Source: a virus (taxonomy: Duplodnaviria; Caudoviricetes). Taken from it: a DNA stretch of 64,000 nt. The position numbers were made by a program, and so were the translations under genes. How positions within the stretch are numbered: the first letter of the stretch is position 1; each line of letters starts with the position of its first letter. Shown here in pieces: positions 1,937-32,391 of this stretch. The notes under the pieces were generated by a model, which did not search any database, was not told where the DNA came from, and saw nothing but the letters and a program-made list of their open reading frames with translations. The stretch lies in the IMG/VR virus record IMGVR_UViG_3300032324_000909, positions 32,001 through 96,000 of that record; one strand, given 5' to 3'.

Positions 1937-1955
1937 TTAATCTTTATAATAAAAT

Positions 1956-3905
1956 ATGAGCAATAAGGCGAAAAATTTATCTTTTCCAGAACCACAGATA
2001 ATCGAGGGTTCTAGCAATGGTAAGAAAAAAAATATAGAAATCGCGGCCTCTTCTCGTGGTGAAGTGGGTTCCGCCGTTCGTAGAAACGCGGCATCTACTA
2101 TTGCCCGTACTGATAAGTATGCAAATATAGAAGGTGGTGTTATACCATTCGCTTATGGTGGCGGTCTCGGCAAGTACACTTCTACAGTAAGTATTCGTGA
2201 TGCTATCATTCTTTGCCAAAAGGCTTATTATAATTTTTCAATTTTTAGAAATACAATTGACTTAATGACGGATTTTACATGTTCGTCAATATATTTTACT
2301 GGTGGAAACTCGCAATCACTCAAGTTTTTTAAAGCTTGGGGTGAAAGAGTTAACCTATGGAAATTACAAGATATGTTTTTCAGGGAGTTTTTCCGTAGTG
2401 GAAACGTATTTTTATATAAATTAAATGCAGAGTTCAGTAAAGATGATATGATGCAGATCAGCGAAATTCTAGCTGCCCAAAATCAGGATATTCCTATAAG
2501 ATATATAGTATTAAACCCAGCTGATATTCAATCTATTGGTTCGGCATCTTTTGTGAGTCCGCGTTACGTAAAAGTATTAAATGATTTTGAAATACAGGTA
2601 ATGACTAATCCACAAACGGATGAGGATAAGGAATTAGCTCAAAAAATAAAAGAATTCGGAGAAATACGTCAGGGTGGAAAAATGAATCAGGGAAATCAGT
2701 TTCTAATGTTTAATTTAGACCCTAGTCGCGTGAAGGCGGTTTTTTATAAAAAACAAGACTACGAGCCATTTAGTGTACCAATGGGTTTCCCCGTTCTTGA
2801 AGACATCAACTGGAAACAGGAATTAAAAAATATTGACATGGCAATTAGTCGAACCGTACAACAGGCCATCTTATTGGTTACAATGGGTAACGACGAGGTT
2901 GGAATGCCAAGTAAAGAGCAGATAGTAAATTTAAGAAAAATTTTCGAAAATGAAAGTGTGGGTCGTATTTTAGTAACTGATTATACTACTAATATAAAAT
3001 TTGTCATACCAGAAATTGGTCAAATACTAGATCCTAAAAAATATGAAGTTGTTGATAGAGATATTAGATACGGACTAAATAACGTACTAGTTGGTGATGA
3101 AAAATATTCGAATACTAGCACAAAGGTAGAAGTATTTTTGTCTAGATTAAAACATGCTAGAGAGGCGTTTTTAAATCAATTTCTTGTACCAGAAATGAAA
3201 GATATTGGTAAAAAATTAGGATTTAAATCTATACCTACTGCTAGATTTACAGATTCGGATTTTAGAGATGACGCAAATCTTACTCGTATATATACAAGAC
3301 TTGTTGAGTTGGGGGCATTAACTCCAGAGGAAGGAATGACTGCAATTGAAACTGGTAGGCTTCCGTTACCCGAAGAGAGCATTGAGTCTCAGAAAAAATT
3401 TGTAGAACTTCAAGATCAGGGCTTGTATCAGCCACTACTAAATAAGGTGCAACAGACTGGCTCAAGTGGCAAGCCAGAAGAAAAAAAATCTAAAGTAGCC
3501 AATAATATGCCCGGTAGACCAGCGGGTACAGGTACGCCTAAAATTACAAACAGAATAGGTAAAATTGGCGGAAGCAGTGAAGAAAAACAGCAGTCAAAAT
3601 TAAGTGCAAAAAAATTAGCAGAGAATCTAGTTAAATTTGATTCACTTATTTCCAGTATCGAAGACTCCCTCAAGAAGTCTTATAAGAAAAATAAGTTATC
3701 TAAAGAGCAAAAAAATATAATTAAAGAAGTTGCTGAGACCATTGCAACAAATGAAACTCCAGATAAATGGAATGAGAGTATCGCGTCTTATATCAATAAT
3801 CCAGTCAAGGTTACGGATAATATGACTAAGGTTGATGAGATATCTCAAAAACATTCGGTTGATCGTAAAACAGCTATACTTTTACTACACAGCGAAATAG
3901 AATAG
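1956..3905 (+). CDS. Portal protein
   Basis: Follows terminase; portal-like helical segments (FRNTIDLMTDF, FREFFRSGNVFLY), C-terminal PGRP low-complexity tail. Confidence 0.8.
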   Translation: MSNKAKNLSFPEPQIIEGSSNGKKKNIEIAASSRGEVGSAVRRNAASTIARTDKYANIEGGVIPFAYGGGLGKYTSTVSIRDAIILCQKAYYNFSIFRNTIDLMTDFTCSSIYFTGGNSQSLKFFKAWGERVNLWKLQDMFFREFFRSGNVFLYKLNAEFSKDDMMQISEILAAQNQDIPIRYIVLNPADIQSIGSASFVSPRYVKVLNDFEIQVMTNPQTDEDKELAQKIKEFGEIRQGGKMNQGNQFLMFNLDPSRVKAVFYKKQDYEPFSVPMGFPVLEDINWKQELKNIDMAISRTVQQAILLVTMGNDEVGMPSKEQIVNLRKIFENESVGRILVTDYTTNIKFVIPEIGQILDPKKYEVVDRDIRYGLNNVLVGDEKYSNTSTKVEVFLSRLKHAREAFLNQFLVPEMKDIGKKLGFKSIPTARFTDSDFRDDANLTRIYTRLVELGALTPEEGMTAIETGRLPLPEESIESQKKFVELQDQGLYQPLLNKVQQTGSSGKPEEKKSKVANNMPGRPAGTGTPKITNRIGKIGGSSEEKQQSKLSAKKLAENLVKFDSLISSIEDSLKKSYKKNKLSKEQKNIIKEVAETIATNETPDKWNESIASYINNPVKVTDNMTKVDEISQKHSVDRKTAILLLHSEIE

Positions 3906-13176: not shown

Positions 13177-13401
13177 ATGAGTTTTGATATTAATAATTTT
13201 GTCATTGGCGCGACCTCACGTGAGGTGAAAAAGCTATACTTGTCACTTCTATACACAATAGAAGATTTGAAAAATAAAGATAAGATAAGCGAAGAAGATT
13301 TTCAATATACCAGAAAGCGTATATTAGATTATGGAAATAACTGCATTCGTAATATGGAAGAACAGTTAGATAATTTTGATTTCACGTTTAAACAGAAATA
13401 G
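13177..13401 (+). CDS. Small hypothetical protein in tail assembly region
   Basis: 74-aa helical ORF directly after late promoter. Confidence 0.7.
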   Translation: MSFDINNFVIGATSREVKKLYLSLLYTIEDLKNKDKISEEDFQYTRKRILDYGNNCIRNMEEQLDNFDFTFKQK

Positions 13402-13409
13402 TATATTAT

Positions 13410-14171
13410 ATGCAACAAAATAACAAGAAATGGTATTATAAATTTAGTACTGAAAAAGAAGTAAAAAACTCGGACGGAACCTCTAATAAGGAAGTTTTAA
13501 ATTTTGCTCTGCTTAAACCAAATAGGAGACTGCGTGAGGATGGCGAATTATTTTTTGCTAGTGAAGTTTCTAGGTTTGCAAAAGCTGGCGTTTTACCAAA
13601 GGCCGCTTGGAATACAATTTTGTCAAATGGTGGTGGAAGCATAAGCGAGCAAGATAGGGAAGTATATGGAGAACTATTAACCGCATTTCGTGATAAGACT
13701 TTTGACATTCAGTCTCTTTTGATTAAGACCGATGGTGTTCGTACGGAAGAAGACAAGCAATTATTAAATAAACTAACAACAGAATTAGATGAGGTTAGAA
13801 GGCAAATTCAATCTTTTGAAAGTGCGCAGATTAATATTTTTGAAAACACTGCCGAAGCAAAGGCTAGAAATCGCACTATCCTATGGTGGATTACAAATCT
13901 ACTTTATCAAGAAAAGGGCACTGATTTTGCTAAATTCTTTGACAAGAATACGTTAGATGAAAATCTTGATAGATATGATGAGATTGAAGAGTCCGACGAC
14001 GAGGCATTACAATCATCAATTAGACGTGTTTCTTACCTAATTACTTTATGGTTCCTAGGTCGCGCAGAAACCGAAGAAGACTTCAAGGAACTAGATGAGG
14101 CCGCTAATAAACAGCCAGATAAAACCGAAACTAAGGAGTTGGAAAATACCACCCCTGAAGGTAACTCTTAA
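13410..14171 (+). CDS. Putative tail assembly chaperone
   Basis: Acidic helical protein between tail tube and tape measure. Confidence 0.5.
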   Translation: MQQNNKKWYYKFSTEKEVKNSDGTSNKEVLNFALLKPNRRLREDGELFFASEVSRFAKAGVLPKAAWNTILSNGGGSISEQDREVYGELLTAFRDKTFDIQSLLIKTDGVRTEEDKQLLNKLTTELDEVRRQIQSFESAQINIFENTAEAKARNRTILWWITNLLYQEKGTDFAKFFDKNTLDENLDRYDEIEESDDEALQSSIRRVSYLITLWFLGRAETEEDFKELDEAANKQPDKTETKELENTTPEGNS

Positions 14172-14176
14172 GCGAT

Positions 14177-15196
14177 GTGGATAAATCTACAGAGTACGGC
14201 AGGATTTATAATGAAATAGCCTGTGGGTTTTCCAAGAAAACGATAAATGGTGTAGACTATTTCTTTAAACACCCAAGTCAAGCCGAGCACTTTAGTATAT
14301 ATGATAGGTATGATGTAATCTATAAAGATGCAAAAAATCGCGGCTTAGAGACAGAAGCAGAGAAGTTGGAAAGAGCTATTGCTGAAGGGTGGTGGTCGTC
14401 ACAAAACGAAGTTACCATAGATTTCTTAAAAAAGACTGTTAAAAACTTATATAAAACAAAAGAAAAGTTATTATATAAATCGCAAAAAGAAGATATTCAA
14501 AAACAGATAGTTAGAAATGAAAGGGTGTTACTTACTTACCATAAGCAAAGAAATGAGGTTGTGGGCTATACTTTGGAGAAGTATGCTAACGATAAATTTT
14601 ATGATGAAACAATCTTGAAATTAACCTATAAAAACGAAGGTTTGACAGAAAGGGTGTTCGAGTCAGAGAATGATTATTATTATTTATCTGAAGACGTTGT
14701 GGAGGATATACGGACGGGTTTTAATGGACATATATCAAGATTAAGTCTAGAAAATATCAGATTAGTATCTGCTTGTATGTTTTTTCAAAATTTAATTTAT
14801 ATTACAGACTGTATTCCCATGAATTTTTGGGGTAAGGCGACGGCTCTTTGTACAAAGTATCAAATAGATTTACTTATTTATGGTAAAATGTTTAAAAATA
14901 TAATACAAAATTCTGCGGAGGGTGGCAAACCGATCAATGATGAAATACTGTCTGATCCAGAAAGGCTTGTGTCTTGGGTGGATTCACAATCTAGTGGTTC
15001 TAGCGCAAAAAGTAAACAAAACTTAAAAAATAGTTCTACCAGAGTAACTGGTCATGTTGGCGCCACCCAATCAGATTTAAGGGACTTGGGAGTAAAGGTT
15101 GAAAAAATTGGCGGTAAAAGTTTATTACAGTTGGCCGAAGAAAGTGGTGGTACACTTGAAAAATCCGAATATCTTAATGCGCGTGATAAGTTGTAA
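14177..15196 (+). CDS. Putative second tail assembly chaperone
   Basis: Position immediately upstream of tape measure. Confidence 0.45.
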   Translation: MDKSTEYGRIYNEIACGFSKKTINGVDYFFKHPSQAEHFSIYDRYDVIYKDAKNRGLETEAEKLERAIAEGWWSSQNEVTIDFLKKTVKNLYKTKEKLLYKSQKEDIQKQIVRNERVLLTYHKQRNEVVGYTLEKYANDKFYDETILKLTYKNEGLTERVFESENDYYYLSEDVVEDIRTGFNGHISRLSLENIRLVSACMFFQNLIYITDCIPMNFWGKATALCTKYQIDLLIYGKMFKNIIQNSAEGGKPINDEILSDPERLVSWVDSQSSGSSAKSKQNLKNSSTRVTGHVGATQSDLRDLGVKVEKIGGKSLLQLAEESGGTLEKSEYLNARDKL

Positions 15197-15235: not shown

Positions 15236-18200
15236 ATGGCCGCACAAGCAACAATTAATATTAATGCCAATGTATCGTCAGCGCAGGCTGCAATACAAAA
15301 ACTAGTTAATCAACAGTATAATCTTAATTTAAATTTAAGTACTAAGGGAAACCAGCCATTAGGTAGAATTACTGGACAACTTTCTGAATTTAATAAATCC
15401 TTAGATGCGGCAAACGCGCGTGTTGTTGCTTTCGGTGCTAGTGCAACTATTTTATATGGTTTAAACAAAGCTTTCGAGTCGTTAATAACATCTACTATCG
15501 AAGTACAAAAATATCTTGCAGATATTAATGTAATTTTAAATGTTTCTGATAAACAGATAAGTAAATTTGGCGACTCTCTTTTTAATGTTGCAAAAAATAC
15601 CGGCCAGTCGTTTGCGGAAGTTGCAAAGGCGGCTACAGAATTTTCACGTCAGGGTCTTGGCGTAGAAGAGACCTTAAAACGTACTAGCGAGGCCCTAATT
15701 TTATCAAGATTAAGTGGTTTAGATACGGTAAAGAGCGTTGAGGCGTTAACGGCAGCTGTTAACAGTTTTGCTTCTCAATCTGTAACTGCAACGCAAATAG
15801 TTAATAAGTTTGCAACAGTTGATGCGGCATTCGCGGTTAGTTCCGCTGACTTGGCAGAGGCAATTAGTCGTGTTGGTAGCAGTGCTTCGCAATCTGGTGT
15901 TCAGTTAGATGAACTTATTGGTTTGGTTACCTCTGCACAGCAGACAACTGCCCGTGGTGGTGCAGTTATTGGTAACTCATTTAAGACAATTTTTACAAGG
16001 CTTCAGCGTGGTAAGGTTGTTGACTTGCTTGGTAGTCTCGGTATTGAAACCACGGATGCAAGTGGTCAACTAAGATCAACTATTGATTTATTAAAAGATC
16101 TTGGAAGGGTTTATGATACTCTTGGCTCTCAACAACAGGCTTCGGTTGCTGAAGCTGTCGGTGGTGTTTTCCAGATTAACATTTTAAAGGCCGCTTTATC
16201 TGATTTGGGTAAAGAGTATTCTATTTATAATAATGCCGTTCAAATATCTTCTACGGCAACAAACGAAGCTACTGTAAGAAATGATCAATTAAACAAAACT
16301 TTAGCTGCGCAAGTTAACGCCCTAAAGCAAAATGCAACCCAGTTTGCCGCAAAATCTGGAGAGTCTCTTTTTGGCCCAGCGCTAGAAAATTTAGTTGGTG
16401 GTGGAAATAGTTTGTTAGAGTCTTTAAATAATGTAGATAGCGAAAGTGTTGGTGGCAAAATTGGAAATGGCATCTTAAAGGGGCTAGGAGATATTATCGC
16501 TGGTCCCGGTTTGGCACTTGTTGGTGGTGTTTTATTAAAACTTTTTGGAGACTTCGCGAAATTTTCAGCAGGAAGTGTGAAGGAGTTGCTAGGTTTAAAC
16601 GCAACGGCATCTCAACAGCAAGGTATTCAAGCTAGTATTTCTGCAATATTAGCAAAAAATCCACAGTTGTATCAACAAATGGCAAGTGGGGCAATGAGTG
16701 TCAATCAGGCTTCTCAAGTTTTATTAACAGTTCTTCAGCAACAAACTACACAAATGCAGCAACAGGCCGCATTAACTTCCCAAATATCAAAAAATTTATT
16801 TGGCGCTGGTGTTAGAGTTCCAAAGGGCAGTCAAGTCCCAGTAACTACAAAAGCCGCTGGTTATATTCCAAATTTTGCTGATCAGTACGCAATGGAAGAA
16901 GCTCAAGCTAAAGCATTAGGTGCTAAAAATCCAAGGGCGCAATTAAGTAGAGGAACTATTGATGGTAAGAAATTTATTAAGAATAGTGAAGAAGTGGAAA
17001 TACCAAGATTTGGTAAAAATGGTGATTCTGCTGTTATTCCAATGTATGGTCGTGGATATATTCCTAATTTTGCAGAATCTAATGCAAAAACTAGTATAAA
17101 CTCTAATGCAAGCGTGTTAGTTCCAGAATATGGAACATTTCCGAACGCAAATTCAGTTGGAAAAAATAATAGAGATATATTAGTAACGGATATACCAATC
17201 CGTGGATATACAAAGGGCGCAGTAAAACCAGCTGGTAATTTAAATGAGTTGATAAAAAAACAAGGATTACAGACAGTTGCTGATTATATAAAAACTTTAC
17301 AACCACTTGGTCAGGGTGTTGATGAATCAGTTCTGAGTCAGAGTTTTTTAAGTGAAAAAGATGGTGGGTCTAGGGGTGCTTATGGCGCTTTGCAGGGTTT
17401 TGTTGGGTCTGCGTTTGAAGTTGCTATATCTAAATCGTTAGATTATATAGCGGCAAAATCTACAGCAAATATGGCAGATTTTGACGTAAGGGGTGGACAA
17501 AACGCTGATAAATTAAAACAATTATTTGGTTATGCTGGAAATCTTGCTGATTTTAAAGTATCCGCATCTTCTGGTAATCTTTTAAGTTTTGCTGATAAAG
17601 TTATTAAAGAAAGGGGTGGTAGAGATGCCATACTTGGAAGCAGTGCCGAACAGCGAACGAAAAGAAAAGCACCCGGTAAGCCAGCAAGAAGAAAGCCCGG
17701 ATTTGCAAGTGGCTATATTCCTAACTTTGCAAATGCCTTAAACGAATCAATATCACGCGAAATTGGCGCTGGAGTACCGAAGAGCGGCATATATACCAGA
17801 CAGTATCCAGAGCTAGTAAATTCTAGTAATCCAATGGGTGTTGGCGTGTTTAACAAGCGAGACGAGGGCTCTACCTCAGCCGATAAACGCGCGATGTCAA
17901 ATCGTGGTTATGCAAAGGGATATATACCAAATTTTGCAGAGGGAGATGGTACTAGTATTAGTTCAACTGTTACAGCTGTTGGCGCGCAACTTACAAGTTT
18001 TGCAACACTGCTAGCTTTTCAAATTCCAAATGTCAAGCGCTCGTATCAAGAAGAAATTGCCACAAGAAAAGCGGCTTTAATACAGGTTACTACCGAAGAA
18101 ATTTCCCAGAGGCGTGAGGCGGCAAAACAATTAAGCGCAACACAGACGCAGGAAAGAAATCAGCTTGCCCAAGAAATTAAAGACAGGCGCGCAAAACTAA

Positions 18201-21025
18201 AAACAATTCAAGCTGGTGGTGCCGAAACACTGAGTCGTGGCGCCCGTAACGCATCAAGGCTACAGGCTGGTGCTGGCGCTGCTGGAACAGCGTTGGCTTT
18301 TGCACCGATTATAGCTGAAACCGTTGCCTCATCTATAGATACCACAAATAAAGAAGGTAGAGTTAAATCTGCCGCAGTTACTGGCATTGGAACCGCCCTA
18401 TCTGCCGCTGGTACTGGGGCTTTAGTTGGTAGCGCCTTAGGGCCTGTCGGAACCGCTATTGGTGGGGCGCTTGGTTTGGCTGTCGGCGGATTAACTGCTT
18501 GGACTAAAGCGTTAAATGAGTCGAGGACAAACCTTCCAGAATTGCAGGCATCCACCAAAAAAACATCGGAAGAGCAATCAAGGCTTGCCGAAGTTACTCA
18601 AGCTGTACTTCCAAAATTAGAACAACTGCAAGAATTAAGACAAGGTGGTAATGCTGGTTCTAGAGAGGCCGTAGCGTTAGAAAAAGAAATTAGAGCTATC
18701 GCAAGTAATGCAAGTCCAGAAGCACAAAAGGCTATAAGTGCTGGTGGTCTTGATTTCGCAAAAACTCAAAAAAATCTAACTGATGTATTAAAAACTTTAA
18801 GTGATAGACTAGCAAAACAAGGAGCGGCAGTTCAGTCAACTTCTATTGCTGAAGCCGCTATTGGCGGAAAAATTAATAAAGAACAATTTGGTGCGCAAAT
18901 ATCAAAGCAAGCTATTAGCGGAAAGACTGACGCTGAACTTAAGGCAATGGGTGATGAATTATCATCTGCAACTATTGATTTAAGTAAATTGAGAGGTGCC
19001 CTAGGACTTACTGAGGAGCAAGCTGGAAAATTAGAAGAACAGTTTGGAAATTCTTGGCAGAGTTTTGCACAAGATTTAGCCAAGGCAATTTCAGAAGAAA
19101 AAAGAATAAGACTAGATGGGGCTAGGAATACGGCCAAGGGTTTTGTGGATCGTAATCAGGCGGCCGTAAAAGCCTTACAAGATTTTGAAAACAAGTTGAA
19201 AAAAGTAATATCAAGTATGGATATTGCAACGAGAACAAGCATTGCAACTTCAGGTGCAGAATTTGCTTCGGATTTTAAAAGAACAAAATCAACTGGACAG
19301 GTTGATATTTTAGAGGCACTTGGGTTTGAAAAAGCTGCATCAAACCTTAAAACAAAAAATATATATCAAGATACTATTGGCGCACAGCAAACTAAATCTG
19401 CGGCAGACATAGATGAGGCCATTAAACAGTCTTTAAATACAGCGTTCGAAAAAGCAATACCAACAGCCACTGGAGTTAAAGATGTTAGTCAGTATAATGA
19501 TATAAGAGGTCAGTTAGGTGACTTATCTGGAGTGACTGGCAATCAAGATTTTTCAAAAAAAATTCAAGATATATCTGCTAAAATTGGGTCAGTTAAAACT
19601 AATACAATACAAGGGCCCTTGGGACCATTAGAGCAATATGATACTGAGGGAATGATTTCTGCATTAAAAGAAAATGGGGTTAAAGATGAGGAGCAGCTTA
19701 ATAAACTTAGAGAAACATTCAATAGTAATAATAAATTACTATTCGCTGCGCAAAAAGATGCTGCTACCAAAACTGTTCAGCGTCTGGACGAGTTAATTAA
19801 AGTAACTATTCAGGAAATGGATAAATTGGGTGGAACGATGGATCAGATGTTTAACGATGGCGGAATGGGAGACAATTCAGTGTCAGATAAATTTACAGAG
19901 GCCACAGATAATTTTATTGCCGTACAAAAAGACACGACAGCTACGGACGAACAAAGGGGACAGGCCGCTAGCGATTGGATAAAAGCCTATCAAGCCACAG
20001 GAGGCACTATAGACACAAGCAATCCAATGTATCAAATGGCGGTAGAATCTATGGCTAAAATTGGTCAAAAACAACAGGCGTCAATTGAGGCTAATTTAGC
20101 GAAAGTTGGTTTGGATCCAGCAATGGCTGCAAGAACCGTTAGGCAAACCACTGGTGCGCTTACTTCAGAACAGGGCTTGATGGAGGCGGCAAAGGTTAAG
20201 GCTGGTATAGCATTTAAGCCAACTGATGCTAATATACAAAGCGCGCGAGTTGAACAACTTAGGGGCAAGCAATCTGATATAATAAGCAAACTAGGTCCGG
20301 AAGGCGCTGCTTTATCGGCAACATACGGCGCGGCTACAGAAGAGGCCAATAAAATTCCAGACGGAATAAGAAGTCTAGGAGATGTTTTTACAACGCAGAT
20401 AGGAATGTCAAATGGCTATCTTTCTAATATGGTAAGTATTTTGGGAGGGTTAGCTGGACAAGGTGCGCAGCTTCCGGGCATGGCGGCACAAGAAGTACAA
20501 AAAGGGGGAGACTTGTCAACAATATTTAATCCAGCTGTTGGCATGAATAGTGCGGCTTTAATGGGTGGGCGTAATTTACTAGAATCAGCACCTAACCAAA
20601 TGTATAGAGAAAGGTTCACAATGCCAGATGCCGCACTTGAATCACAAAGGGCTCAGGCCTTACCGGGTTCCCCTCTAGCAAATCCATATCAGGGTATGAT
20701 GCTAAGTACTCAGGGGGAAATGGATGTTATACAAAGACAAAAAGAAGAAACTCAAAGAAATATGACTCAAGCACAAGCGGGCGAATCATCTCTTAGTTTT
20801 AATTCTCCAATTACAATCGCAATAAATGCCGCATCACAAGCTCAGGGGCAACAAATTCAACAAGAGCTTCAAGGTGTTGATCAGGAAATTATTGATGTTA
20901 TACAGGGAAGATTAGCCAAAGTAGAGGCAATAGCAGCCGCAACCGTAACTAAGGATCCAAGTTTAAATCCGCCGCCAAAAAAACCAAAACCTCTTTTCAA
21001 CGTTCTTGGTCTTGACATCACTTAA
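15236..21025 (+). CDS. Tail tape measure protein (TP901-like core) with GYIPNFA repeats and glycine-zipper segments
   Basis: 1929 aa, Ala/Gln-rich helices, core motif GAVIGNSFKTIFTRL, position after chaperones. Confidence 0.9.
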   Translation: MAAQATININANVSSAQAAIQKLVNQQYNLNLNLSTKGNQPLGRITGQLSEFNKSLDAANARVVAFGASATILYGLNKAFESLITSTIEVQKYLADINVILNVSDKQISKFGDSLFNVAKNTGQSFAEVAKAATEFSRQGLGVEETLKRTSEALILSRLSGLDTVKSVEALTAAVNSFASQSVTATQIVNKFATVDAAFAVSSADLAEAISRVGSSASQSGVQLDELIGLVTSAQQTTARGGAVIGNSFKTIFTRLQRGKVVDLLGSLGIETTDASGQLRSTIDLLKDLGRVYDTLGSQQQASVAEAVGGVFQINILKAALSDLGKEYSIYNNAVQISSTATNEATVRNDQLNKTLAAQVNALKQNATQFAAKSGESLFGPALENLVGGGNSLLESLNNVDSESVGGKIGNGILKGLGDIIAGPGLALVGGVLLKLFGDFAKFSAGSVKELLGLNATASQQQGIQASISAILAKNPQLYQQMASGAMSVNQASQVLLTVLQQQTTQMQQQAALTSQISKNLFGAGVRVPKGSQVPVTTKAAGYIPNFADQYAMEEAQAKALGAKNPRAQLSRGTIDGKKFIKNSEEVEIPRFGKNGDSAVIPMYGRGYIPNFAESNAKTSINSNASVLVPEYGTFPNANSVGKNNRDILVTDIPIRGYTKGAVKPAGNLNELIKKQGLQTVADYIKTLQPLGQGVDESVLSQSFLSEKDGGSRGAYGALQGFVGSAFEVAISKSLDYIAAKSTANMADFDVRGGQNADKLKQLFGYAGNLADFKVSASSGNLLSFADKVIKERGGRDAILGSSAEQRTKRKAPGKPARRKPGFASGYIPNFANALNESISREIGAGVPKSGIYTRQYPELVNSSNPMGVGVFNKRDEGSTSADKRAMSNRGYAKGYIPNFAEGDGTSISSTVTAVGAQLTSFATLLAFQIPNVKRSYQEEIATRKAALIQVTTEEISQRREAAKQLSATQTQERNQLAQEIKDRRAKLKTIQAGGAETLSRGARNASRLQAGAGAAGTALAFAPIIAETVASSIDTTNKEGRVKSAAVTGIGTALSAAGTGALVGSALGPVGTAIGGALGLAVGGLTAWTKALNESRTNLPELQASTKKTSEEQSRLAEVTQAVLPKLEQLQELRQGGNAGSREAVALEKEIRAIASNASPEAQKAISAGGLDFAKTQKNLTDVLKTLSDRLAKQGAAVQSTSIAEAAIGGKINKEQFGAQISKQAISGKTDAELKAMGDELSSATIDLSKLRGALGLTEEQAGKLEEQFGNSWQSFAQDLAKAISEEKRIRLDGARNTAKGFVDRNQAAVKALQDFENKLKKVISSMDIATRTSIATSGAEFASDFKRTKSTGQVDILEALGFEKAASNLKTKNIYQDTIGAQQTKSAADIDEAIKQSLNTAFEKAIPTATGVKDVSQYNDIRGQLGDLSGVTGNQDFSKKIQDISAKIGSVKTNTIQGPLGPLEQYDTEGMISALKENGVKDEEQLNKLRETFNSNNKLLFAAQKDAATKTVQRLDELIKVTIQEMDKLGGTMDQMFNDGGMGDNSVSDKFTEATDNFIAVQKDTTATDEQRGQAASDWIKAYQATGGTIDTSNPMYQMAVESMAKIGQKQQASIEANLAKVGLDPAMAARTVRQTTGALTSEQGLMEAAKVKAGIAFKPTDANIQSARVEQLRGKQSDIISKLGPEGAALSATYGAATEEANKIPDGIRSLGDVFTTQIGMSNGYLSNMVSILGGLAGQGAQLPGMAAQEVQKGGDLSTIFNPAVGMNSAALMGGRNLLESAPNQMYRERFTMPDAALESQRAQALPGSPLANPYQGMMLSTQGEMDVIQRQKEETQRNMTQAQAGESSLSFNSPITIAINAASQAQGQQIQQELQGVDQEIIDVIQGRLAKVEAIAAATVTKDPSLNPPPKKPKPLFNVLGLDIT
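16859..17938 (+). repeat. Four GYIPNFA peptide repeats in tape measure
   Basis: At 16859, 17054, 17711, 17918; identical peptide, synonymous DNA differences. Confidence 0.95.
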
Positions 21026-31986: not shown

Positions 31987-32391
31987 ATGGCAATTTATAT
32001 CAAATCAACTTGTGATGACTGCACCAATTCTGTCTGTCCTCCAGACACTTGTTTTGCTGTCTATAAGGTCGGAGGACTTGGCTTTGGCCCAATGGGAACG
32101 ACCTGCATAGGTTGCGACCCTATTTTTATAGGCTACATCACAGCAGAAGAAGGTGCTGGATCTTTTGTTACTGTAGAATGCGGTCCGGTTAATCAGTATA
32201 ATAGTGTTGAGGCTGCTGGAGTAAATTCAAACGGAGTTGTTGTATCTTATAAAAACGCATTTTCAAATACCATTGATATAACCTACGACGATTGTGTTAA
32301 TGGAGTTTTTTCCAATGTGTTCGTGCCACCTGATATGCCTTGCCCCTACTACGATTACACCTATCCGAGCTTTACTTGCCCTCCAGAATGA
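31987..32391 (+). CDS. Cys-rich small protein (start ATG 31987)
   Basis: 10 Cys in about 134 aa; stop overlaps next ATG (ATGA). Confidence 0.65.
   Translation: MAIYIKSTCDDCTNSVCPPDTCFAVYKVGGLGFGPMGTTCIGCDPIFIGYITAEEGAGSFVTVECGPVNQYNSVEAAGVNSNGVVVSYKNAFSNTIDITYDDCVNGVFSNVFVPPDMPCPYYDYTYPSFTCPPE

Follow-up and report, generated by a model that had tools for sequence, protein, structure and literature searches.

Tape measure proteins (TMPs) are usually regarded as rulers and channel formers. The locus studied here raises the question of what purpose is served when one such protein carries, in its middle part, four exact copies of the heptapeptide GYIPNFA set around stretches of domain size, and what those stretches might do. 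The gene lies in positions 32,001 to 96,000 of the IMG/VR virus record IMGVR_UViG_3300032324_000909 (Duplodnaviria; Caudoviricetes), a stretch of 64,000 nt that was analysed at its full length and is hereafter called the window. A previous sequence-only reading had taken the repeats for processing, docking or recombination points, by which the TMP would deliver exchangeable effectors, including a restriction-nuclease-like domain, into the host in the manner of a polymorphic toxin; as a whole, that reading is partly supported by the results presented here. We favour, with a probability of about 0.5, an explanation in which the TMP is a cassette carrier, its folded modules being joined by disordered basic linkers, its repeated peptide serving for processing or docking, and its largest module being an enzyme of the PD-(D/E)xK type.

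A repeated junction peptide in the middle of the tape measure protein

The product of window 15236-21025 belongs, by its profile matches, to the TP901 family of TMPs (PF10145, 1.2e-27 and 97.6 bits versus a curated cut-off of 33.2; TIGR01760, 1.3e-36 and 126.4 bits versus a curated cut-off of 28.8; several PHROG tape-measure families also match). GYIPNFA occurs in it exactly four times (Table 1), and the stretches between the copies measure 58, 212 and 62 aa (modules A, B and C), which confirms the two modules of about 60 aa and the one of about 210 aa noticed earlier, as well as the divergent codons of the copies, which vary synonymously (GGT/GGA/GGC/GGA, ATT/ATA, CCA/CCT, AAT/AAC, GCT/GCA). 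Four identical heptapeptides within one protein are far beyond chance. No further copy was found outside the TMP in the complete 140,531-bp genome, where the looser pattern [YFW][IVL]PN[FYW] has only three matches, in ORFs (open reading frames) of 12 and 24 codons and, as FVPNY, in a 233-codon frame. The only DNA repeats in the module region are the 21-24 nt coding for the motif, at 79-88% identity between copies and with differing synonymous sites, and recent DNA duplication is therefore ruled out as the origin of the motif.

A database search with aa 530-910 returned 511 related TMPs, all metagenomic, and 547 motif instances were collected from 193 fetched proteins, with one to eight copies per protein. 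Their logo, A (position -2, 84%)-x-G-[Y 61%/F 38%]-[I 77%/V 22%]-P-N-[F 91%]-[A 95%], gives a fuller motif that reads, at the level of sequence, A-x-G-[YF]-[IV]-P-N-F-[AS]. Basic residues stand at positions -7 to -5, the flanks are unconserved, and nothing is conserved past +6. Codon choice inside the motif broadly follows that of the rest of the gene, with the exception of a modest excess of CCT; therefore, the constraint acts on the peptide, and a DNA-level signal is an unlikely role for the motif. These comparisons show a junction peptide conserved across the family by selection on the protein, not on the DNA. Some near relatives, P0005 among them, lack motif 1 or have it in degenerate form.

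Furthermore, an AlphaFold2 model of aa 530-913, built on a 60-sequence alignment (mean predicted local distance difference test, pLDDT, of 79.7), placed all four motifs in stretches below 50 pLDDT and gave values mostly of 83-96 for modules A, B and C. According to this model, the junction motif would be a short linear peptide in predicted disordered linkers between independently folding domains. In the longer relatives P0034, P0035, P0037, P0041 and P0093, extra junction motifs and small modules of family F3 were observed at aa ~1945-3000, about 1000 aa downstream and near the C-terminus, indicating that the motif is not limited to the central slot. A literature search for the motif letters found no relevant paper in the library covered.

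Cassettes are exchanged at the motif codons

Annotation of the relatives with hidden Markov models (HMMs) revealed a canonical order (m)-A-m-B-m-C-m, in which m is the motif, along with many variants. Module A may be replaced by F6 or F12, and module C by F11 or F3, while the B slot may be occupied by B2, F5, F7, F10 or F4 or by unassigned cassettes (200-300 aa), in some cases by several in succession, each with its own motif. Identities to the window's TMP illustrate the exchange. In P0012 they reach 94% over the N-terminal 541 aa, 95% in A and 82% in C, with 24% over 62% of the B slot; the corresponding values in P0016 are 92%, 90% and 74%, with 23% over 100% of the B slot. P0014, P0015 and P0018 display 93% in the N-terminal 541 aa, 86-88% in A and 74% in C, and their B slots align over 5-19% only. 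Conversely, P0005 and P0006 (N-terminal 541 aa, 93%; A, 88-90%; C, 74%) carry the same module B, at 82-87%. The content between the repeats is thus variable, and not invariant, in five near relatives.

At the nucleotide level, blastn comparisons with L082 and L083, which carry the P0012 and P0015 genes respectively, showed unbroken homology from the gene start to window 17073, the next-to-last base of the motif-2 codons. Homology restarts at window 17710 in L082 and at 17702 in L083, that is, at or just before the start of motif 3, and in base-by-base alignment the identity collapses within 1-2 bases of the motif. The junction peptide is the exact boundary for exchange of the middle cassette among related phages, and on this point the repeats behave as the recombination points, with exchangeable content, that they had been proposed to be.

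The position of these breakpoints also bears on a purely structural explanation, which we consider unlikely, in which motif and modules would act as a hinge or contact for packing or register in the tube, or for binding of a tail assembly chaperone, and cassettes would break at the motif since only joints in flexible linkers give viable proteins. TMPs are mainly assembly proteins, and linker breakpoints are expected in any domain shuffling; however, a hinge would not require the conserved sequence of nine residues that is kept in 547 instances amid unconserved flanks, and a globular domain in the middle of a TMP has no obvious measuring purpose.

The genes beside the TMP gene are much alike in the window, L082 and L083 despite the different cassettes. 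Genes of 253 and 339 aa lie directly upstream in all three (254 aa for the former in L083), and a gene of 511 aa lies downstream in the window and L082, the L083 contig ending at that point. No cassette-linked immunity gene was found among the flanking called genes of the three. As a separate observation, the 24 nt of motif 1 (window 16858-16881) are 100% identical to nt 2409-2432 of the L083 gene, which form the junction between F7 and B2; this would be enough microhomology for phage recombinases.

Module B carries residues of nuclease type

A module of the B superfamily is present in 113 of 119 related TMPs. The module B family comprises 147 homologous stretches, nearly all of them in proteins of TMP length, the few short ones being likely contig-end fragments, and its 86 representatives present the same distribution. 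When stand-alone relatives were sought with a profile among proteins of 95-373 aa, a single fragment was found, on a 972-bp contig. The family is seen only in TMP-like proteins, and it is a candidate for a new nuclease-type family delivered by the tail.

The segments GSAFEVAI, ADFDVRG and LADFKVS, which had drawn attention to this module, are present, and their E..D..DxK residues are conserved in the 147 homologues. Position 728 is E in 132 and D in 15; D750 is invariant (147/147); position 772 is D in 136 and E in 10; and K774 is found in all 146 sequences aligned at that column. Further conserved positions are G714, G717, G724, F727, D748, R752, F764, S784, K788 and E792, and the core columns are invariant in alignments A1, A2 and A3. 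The order expected of PD-(D/E)xK enzymes, E...D...(D/E)-x-K in hydrophobic, strand-like contexts, is therefore found, and the same columns recur (FE, D, EAK) in allele B2, a clear homologue at only ~18% identity (hhalign probability 98.7%, E 2e-16), which also matches B at LF, in the D-to-E change of (D/E)-x-K, and at S..K. Families F5 and F10 keep the same order, with GxIFE, then FDY or GPD, then EAK. The conserved pattern, including its D/E alternation, looks like a PD-(D/E)xK active site, and we regard module B as a candidate for an enzymatic site of this type, with about even chances of being one.

In the model, the core of module B consists of a long helix with E728, very short strands at D750 and at D772-K774, and a subsequent helix with S784 and K788; a variant nuclease core could be arranged in this way. 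When module B alone was folded with AlphaFold2 from its single sequence, the result was unusable (pLDDT 37). An ESM Atlas feature search with the core returned only an unnamed viral cluster, at 0.82.

Several results weigh against the enzymatic part of the explanation. No module B match was obtained in Pfam at E <= 10, nor for the modules in PHROG, NCBIfam or PDB sequence searches, nor in the PDB with a 56-sequence module B profile, and the profile displayed no similarity to E. coli Mrr (E 0.5). The core beta-strands are only 1-4 residues long, and a helix lies between the D strand and the DxK strand, which is not textbook topology. Foldseek searches of the PDB, VIA-align in its wide mode and in a second look, ESM Atlas and BFVD gave nothing significant with the three-module model as query, a query that lowers the score of any single domain. 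Likewise, a whole-TMP profile matched in the PDB only coiled-coil proteins and solved TMPs. Thus, of the restriction-nuclease-like module described from sequence, the conserved nuclease-type residues stand, and the fold, Pfam and PDB searches yielded no link to a known nuclease.

That none of the modules A, B and C yielded a known enzyme fold or family is in favour of the structural explanation introduced above, according to which the conserved charged residues of module B would form a non-catalytic salt-bridge or metal site. Against it, E, D, (D/E)xK and K are kept between families of ~18% identity with a D/E swap, as in an active site. Alternatively, module B could be another hydrolase, for instance a cell-wall glycosidase with E728 and D750 as the acid/base pair. 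Lysozyme-like enzymes would also fit the model, in which a helix carries the Glu and, ~20 residues further on, a small sheet carries the Asp, all within a mostly helical domain; muralytic domains are well documented in TMPs, such as T5 pb2 (PMC10038345) and SPbeta YomI, and the window's N-terminal domain has its nearest cultured match in YomI, which is annotated as both transglycosylase and TMP. Nevertheless, no lysozyme-like or other glycosidase fold emerged from any search, although these folds are usually easy to find, and the conserved K774, K788 and R752 suit phosphate chemistry better, which leaves the glycosidase a very slim chance.

Other cassettes of the B slot were also inspected. 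The F7 cassette (L083:4652-5221; P0015 aa 614-803), which is unrelated to module B, contains YE.R ... AIDGY ... L.I.EVKSG, a textbook D...ExK pattern; it has no Pfam match, and in an ESM Atlas feature search a Tox-REase-7 cluster was among its three nearest (0.86), a result to be taken as a lead only. The F4 cassette (L083:5945-6466; P0015 aa 1045-1218), of 174 aa, contains the Walker A motif GPAGVGKT and displays sub-threshold matches to many P-loop NTPase families (PhoH at 0.0014, AAA_16, nSTAND); it would represent a small NTPase carried within a TMP.

A proposed cassette carrier, with possible processing or docking at the junction peptide

In the explanation that we favour, the middle of the TMP (aa 542-901) would consist of three modules in series that fold separately, with a disordered basic linker ending in A-x-G-Y-I-P-N-F-A to set off each of them. 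Three copies of a folded 24-kDa domain are too big to lie side by side in a tube lumen of ~4 nm; therefore, the modules probably cross the tail unfolded, and they would fold only once the TMP is expelled into the host envelope. Hydrophobic segments lie on both sides of these modules (aa 412-445 and 908-1093), those after the modules being Gly/Ala-rich, where the sequence-only reading had noted glycine-zipper helices, and by analogy with what is known of TMPs they would insert in the membrane, leaving the A-B-C loop on one face. Module B would be an enzyme whose metal-dependent phosphodiesterase site is of the PD-(D/E)xK type (E728, D750, D772-x-K774, K788), in a fold without a match among solved nucleases. 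Versions of module B are retained by nearly all relatives, and highly diverged alleles are exchanged; therefore, it would serve a core infection function under diversifying pressure rather than being an optional toxin.

The junction peptide would most likely be a processing site, at which the chain is cut into modules as T5 cuts pb2, a reading of the motif that we rank first and hold tentatively; docking of a host or phage factor would be an additional or alternative role, the two not being mutually exclusive. That each cassette has its own junction fits a polyprotein. Three further points stand on the opposite side of the balance: no protease domain was found in the TMP or in the scanned tail-gene neighbours, delivery of the modules into the cell is an assumption from general TMP biology, and the likeness to the T5 site amounts to a tripeptide or to A-x-G and was spotted post hoc.

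A bolder version, which we find rather doubtful, is that the TMP is a true polyprotein, cut after ejection at each A-x-G-[YF]-[IV]-P-N-F-A by the mechanism of T5 pb2 and lambda gpH; the nuclease and its small partner domains would be released ahead of the DNA, and the junction codons would serve as crossover points for diverged nuclease alleles and extra enzymes, forming an arms-race locus within a structural gene.

Docking alone, in turn, would mean that each A-x-G-Y-I-P-N-F-A binds a periplasmic chaperone or prolyl isomerase of the SurA, FkpA or PpiD type after the unfolded TMP enters the periplasm, keeping the chain soluble and aiding the folding of the modules, comparable to the short linear epitopes in disordered regions by which colicins bind periplasmic proteins. 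The motif has the properties of such an epitope, being short and linear, located in disordered linkers and built around a conserved aromatic-aliphatic-Pro core. The GT9 heptosyltransferase-like protein encoded by the phage hints at a lipopolysaccharide (LPS) host, hence a periplasm, and phage HK97 reportedly needs the periplasmic chaperone FkpA together with its TMP. Further, the P1 domain of E. coli SurA binds the phage-display peptide WEYIPNV (Kd 1-14 uM; PDB 2PV1; PMC11401910), which has Y-I-P-N in common with the motif. The SurA preference is for Ar-X-Ar-X-Pro (PMC11401910), however, and only one aromatic residue of the motif falls in register with Ar-X-Ar; moreover, the YIPN match, of four residues, was noticed post hoc. 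When mature E. coli SurA and the motif-3 linker were modelled as a complex, the score was 0.01, which counts neither for nor against binding. Docking alone also leaves unexplained why each added cassette brings a motif copy on both sides, and we consider it an unlikely explanation, on a par with the structural one.

Gene organization and genome setting

The coordinates of all features are given in Table 1. The TMP gene is found within a block of same-strand ORFs downstream of a terminase and a capsid-like gene, which fits a tail gene block. The source record is a complete virus genome with direct terminal repeats, which also codes for terminase, ribonucleotide reductase, a DnaB-like helicase and a Pol III alpha subunit.

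Table 1. Features of the tape measure gene and its product, in window coordinates.
Feature	Residues (aa)	Window position	Strand	Description
Tape measure protein gene (P0001)		15236-21025	+	Single 1929-aa ORF; PF10145, TIGR01760, PHROG tape-measure families
Conserved TP901-type TMP domain	75-403	15458..16444	+	TIGR01760 aa 75-403; PF10145 aa 119-310
Hydrophobic Gly-rich segment before modules	412-445	16469..16570	+	Kyte-Doolittle scan, 19-residue mean <=1.86
Junction motif 1 (KAAGYIPNFA)	542-548	16859..16879	+	pLDDT <50
Module A, 58 aa	549-606	16880..17053	+	One helix and small beta-sheet; pLDDT mostly 89-95
Junction motif 2 (YGRGYIPNFA)	607-613	17054..17074	+	Left breakpoint of cassette exchange
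Module B (P0003), 212 aa	614-825	17075..17710	+	N-terminal beta subdomain, alpha/beta core, basic tail; pLDDT 84-96 over core
Conserved catalytic-type core	714-792	17375..17611	+	GxxGA..GxxFE (E728), GDFDVRG (D748, D750), L..LF, LADFK (D772, K774), S784, K788, E792
Junction motif 3 (FASGYIPNFA)	826-832	17711..17731	+	Right breakpoint of cassette exchange
Module C, 62 aa	833-894	17732..17917	+	Helix, beta-hairpin, helices; pLDDT 83-91
Junction motif 4 (YAKGYIPNFA)	895-901	17918..17938	+	pLDDT <50
Hydrophobic Gly/Ala-rich (glycine-zipper-like) segments	908-930, 1009-1034, 1046-1093	17957..18514	+	Hydropathy scan
C-terminal part, probably coiled coil	1131-1929	18626..21022	+	Whole-TMP profile matches coiled-coil proteins and solved TMPs only

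Module C is the most widely retained of the three modules, being present in 117 of 119 related TMPs with the consensus RE..AG.P...I...NP.GLGV.N..DEP, and the HMM of the module A family matches 106 of the 119. The possibility of A and C being a duplicated pair was rejected (hhalign probability 0.2%). The C-terminal part (aa 1131-1929) is the fastest-diverging region of the TMP, with 46-75% identity among relatives.

Among cultured phages, the closest display ~27% identity, to SPbeta YomI and proteins like it, and the match is confined to the N-terminal TMP domain; none in INPHARED matches the A-B-C region. The nearest cultured matches of the N-terminal part (window 15236-16858, aa 1-541) belong to SPbeta-group Bacillus phages, and the terminase weakly matches large Bacillus and Clostridium siphophages; in contrast, the window contains glycosyltransferase genes of LPS type, which point to a Gram-negative host. 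Three ORFs located 5' of the TMP gene (window 13177-15196; 74, 253 and 339 aa) lack both PHROG matches and significant Pfam matches and sit where tail assembly chaperones usually lie; L082 and L083 have ORFs of similar size in the same order, the first one being of 101 aa in L083.

Significance and comparison with known systems

The TMP family itself is known (TP901-type), and its module-fenced architecture with a repeated junction peptide is undescribed. A clade of more than 500 metagenomic TMPs with a sharp junction peptide, exact breakpoints and a near-universal enzyme-like module provides a concrete sequence for tests of TMP processing; it also exemplifies modular evolution inside a structural gene, which could be used for engineering phage-delivered cargo.

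The cutting of TMPs is known only for T5 and lambda, and its mechanism is not known (PMC12617516). T5 pb2 is cut after R1127, between a hydrophobic stretch and the enzymatic domain, into pb2* and pb2C (Linares et al. 2023, PMC10038345), the site in the T5 record being NSFVPR/AEGGMMYPG (the slash marks the cut), and the title of Zweig and Cummings (1973), as cited in PMC10038345, refers to host involvement in this cleavage. Lambda gpH is converted to gpH* and gpHC by a cut in its Gly-rich C-terminal region, at a site that is not known (PMC12617516); this region contains FHFATGGFTG and RGYATGGYVGTP, close to RGYAKGYIPNFA in the window's TMP. Thus NSFVPR/AEGG, FATGGF and RGYATGGYVGTP resemble [YF]-A-x-G-[YF]-[IV]-P, a likeness of 3-5 residues only. 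In both systems, a TMP is cut at a defined site adjacent to its hydrophobic stretch and an enzymatic domain is split from the ruler, whereas for the window's TMP cleavage is only proposed. Moreover, T5 and lambda have one C-terminal cut, in contrast to four mid-protein motif copies around three modules, and the T5 module, a muralytic domain with a metallopeptidase motif, is unlike module B.

Polyvalent proteins (Iyer et al. 2017, PMC5512222) are similarly single chains delivered by the virion, with several independent domains that are believed to come apart on deployment and to act early in infection. They differ in being MuF-type, head-packaged or conjugation-delivered scaffolds, usually with an embedded Zn metallopeptidase and known anti-restriction domains, DNA-modification domains also being typical. 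No polyvalent-type domain, the embedded metallopeptidase included, was found in the window's TMP, and Pfam searches at E <= 1 of this protein and four relatives yielded PF10145 only, save weak P-loop matches in one relative. The polyvalent-protein paper makes no mention of tape measure proteins (PMC5512222).

In polymorphic toxins (CdiA with VENN, Rhs with PxxxxDPxGL, phage MuF), as here, a short conserved peptide bounds recombining variable domains. Domains of the restriction endonuclease (REase) fold are a common cargo of such toxins. In the window's TMP, by contrast, the variable part lies inside the protein with a boundary at either end, it is not accompanied by an immunity gene, and most alternative cassettes are diverged alleles of one domain, so that the proposed likeness to a polymorphic toxin holds for the peptide-bounded variable cassettes.

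Finally, the Rpf-like motif of mycobacteriophage TM4, the transglycosylase of SPbeta YomI and the TMP-related effectors of contractile injection systems (Sle1), which were described in 2026 and whose functional domains are swappable (PMC13277306), are other cases in which a TMP scaffold bears exchangeable domains with a function at or after ejection. Their domains are peptidoglycan hydrolases or C-terminal effector domains, none with a repeated junction peptide or a PD-(D/E)xK-like module. Taken together, the nearest precedents of the protein described here are TMPs with embedded muralytic domains, the processing of the T5 and lambda TMPs, and the TMP-related effectors of contractile injection systems.

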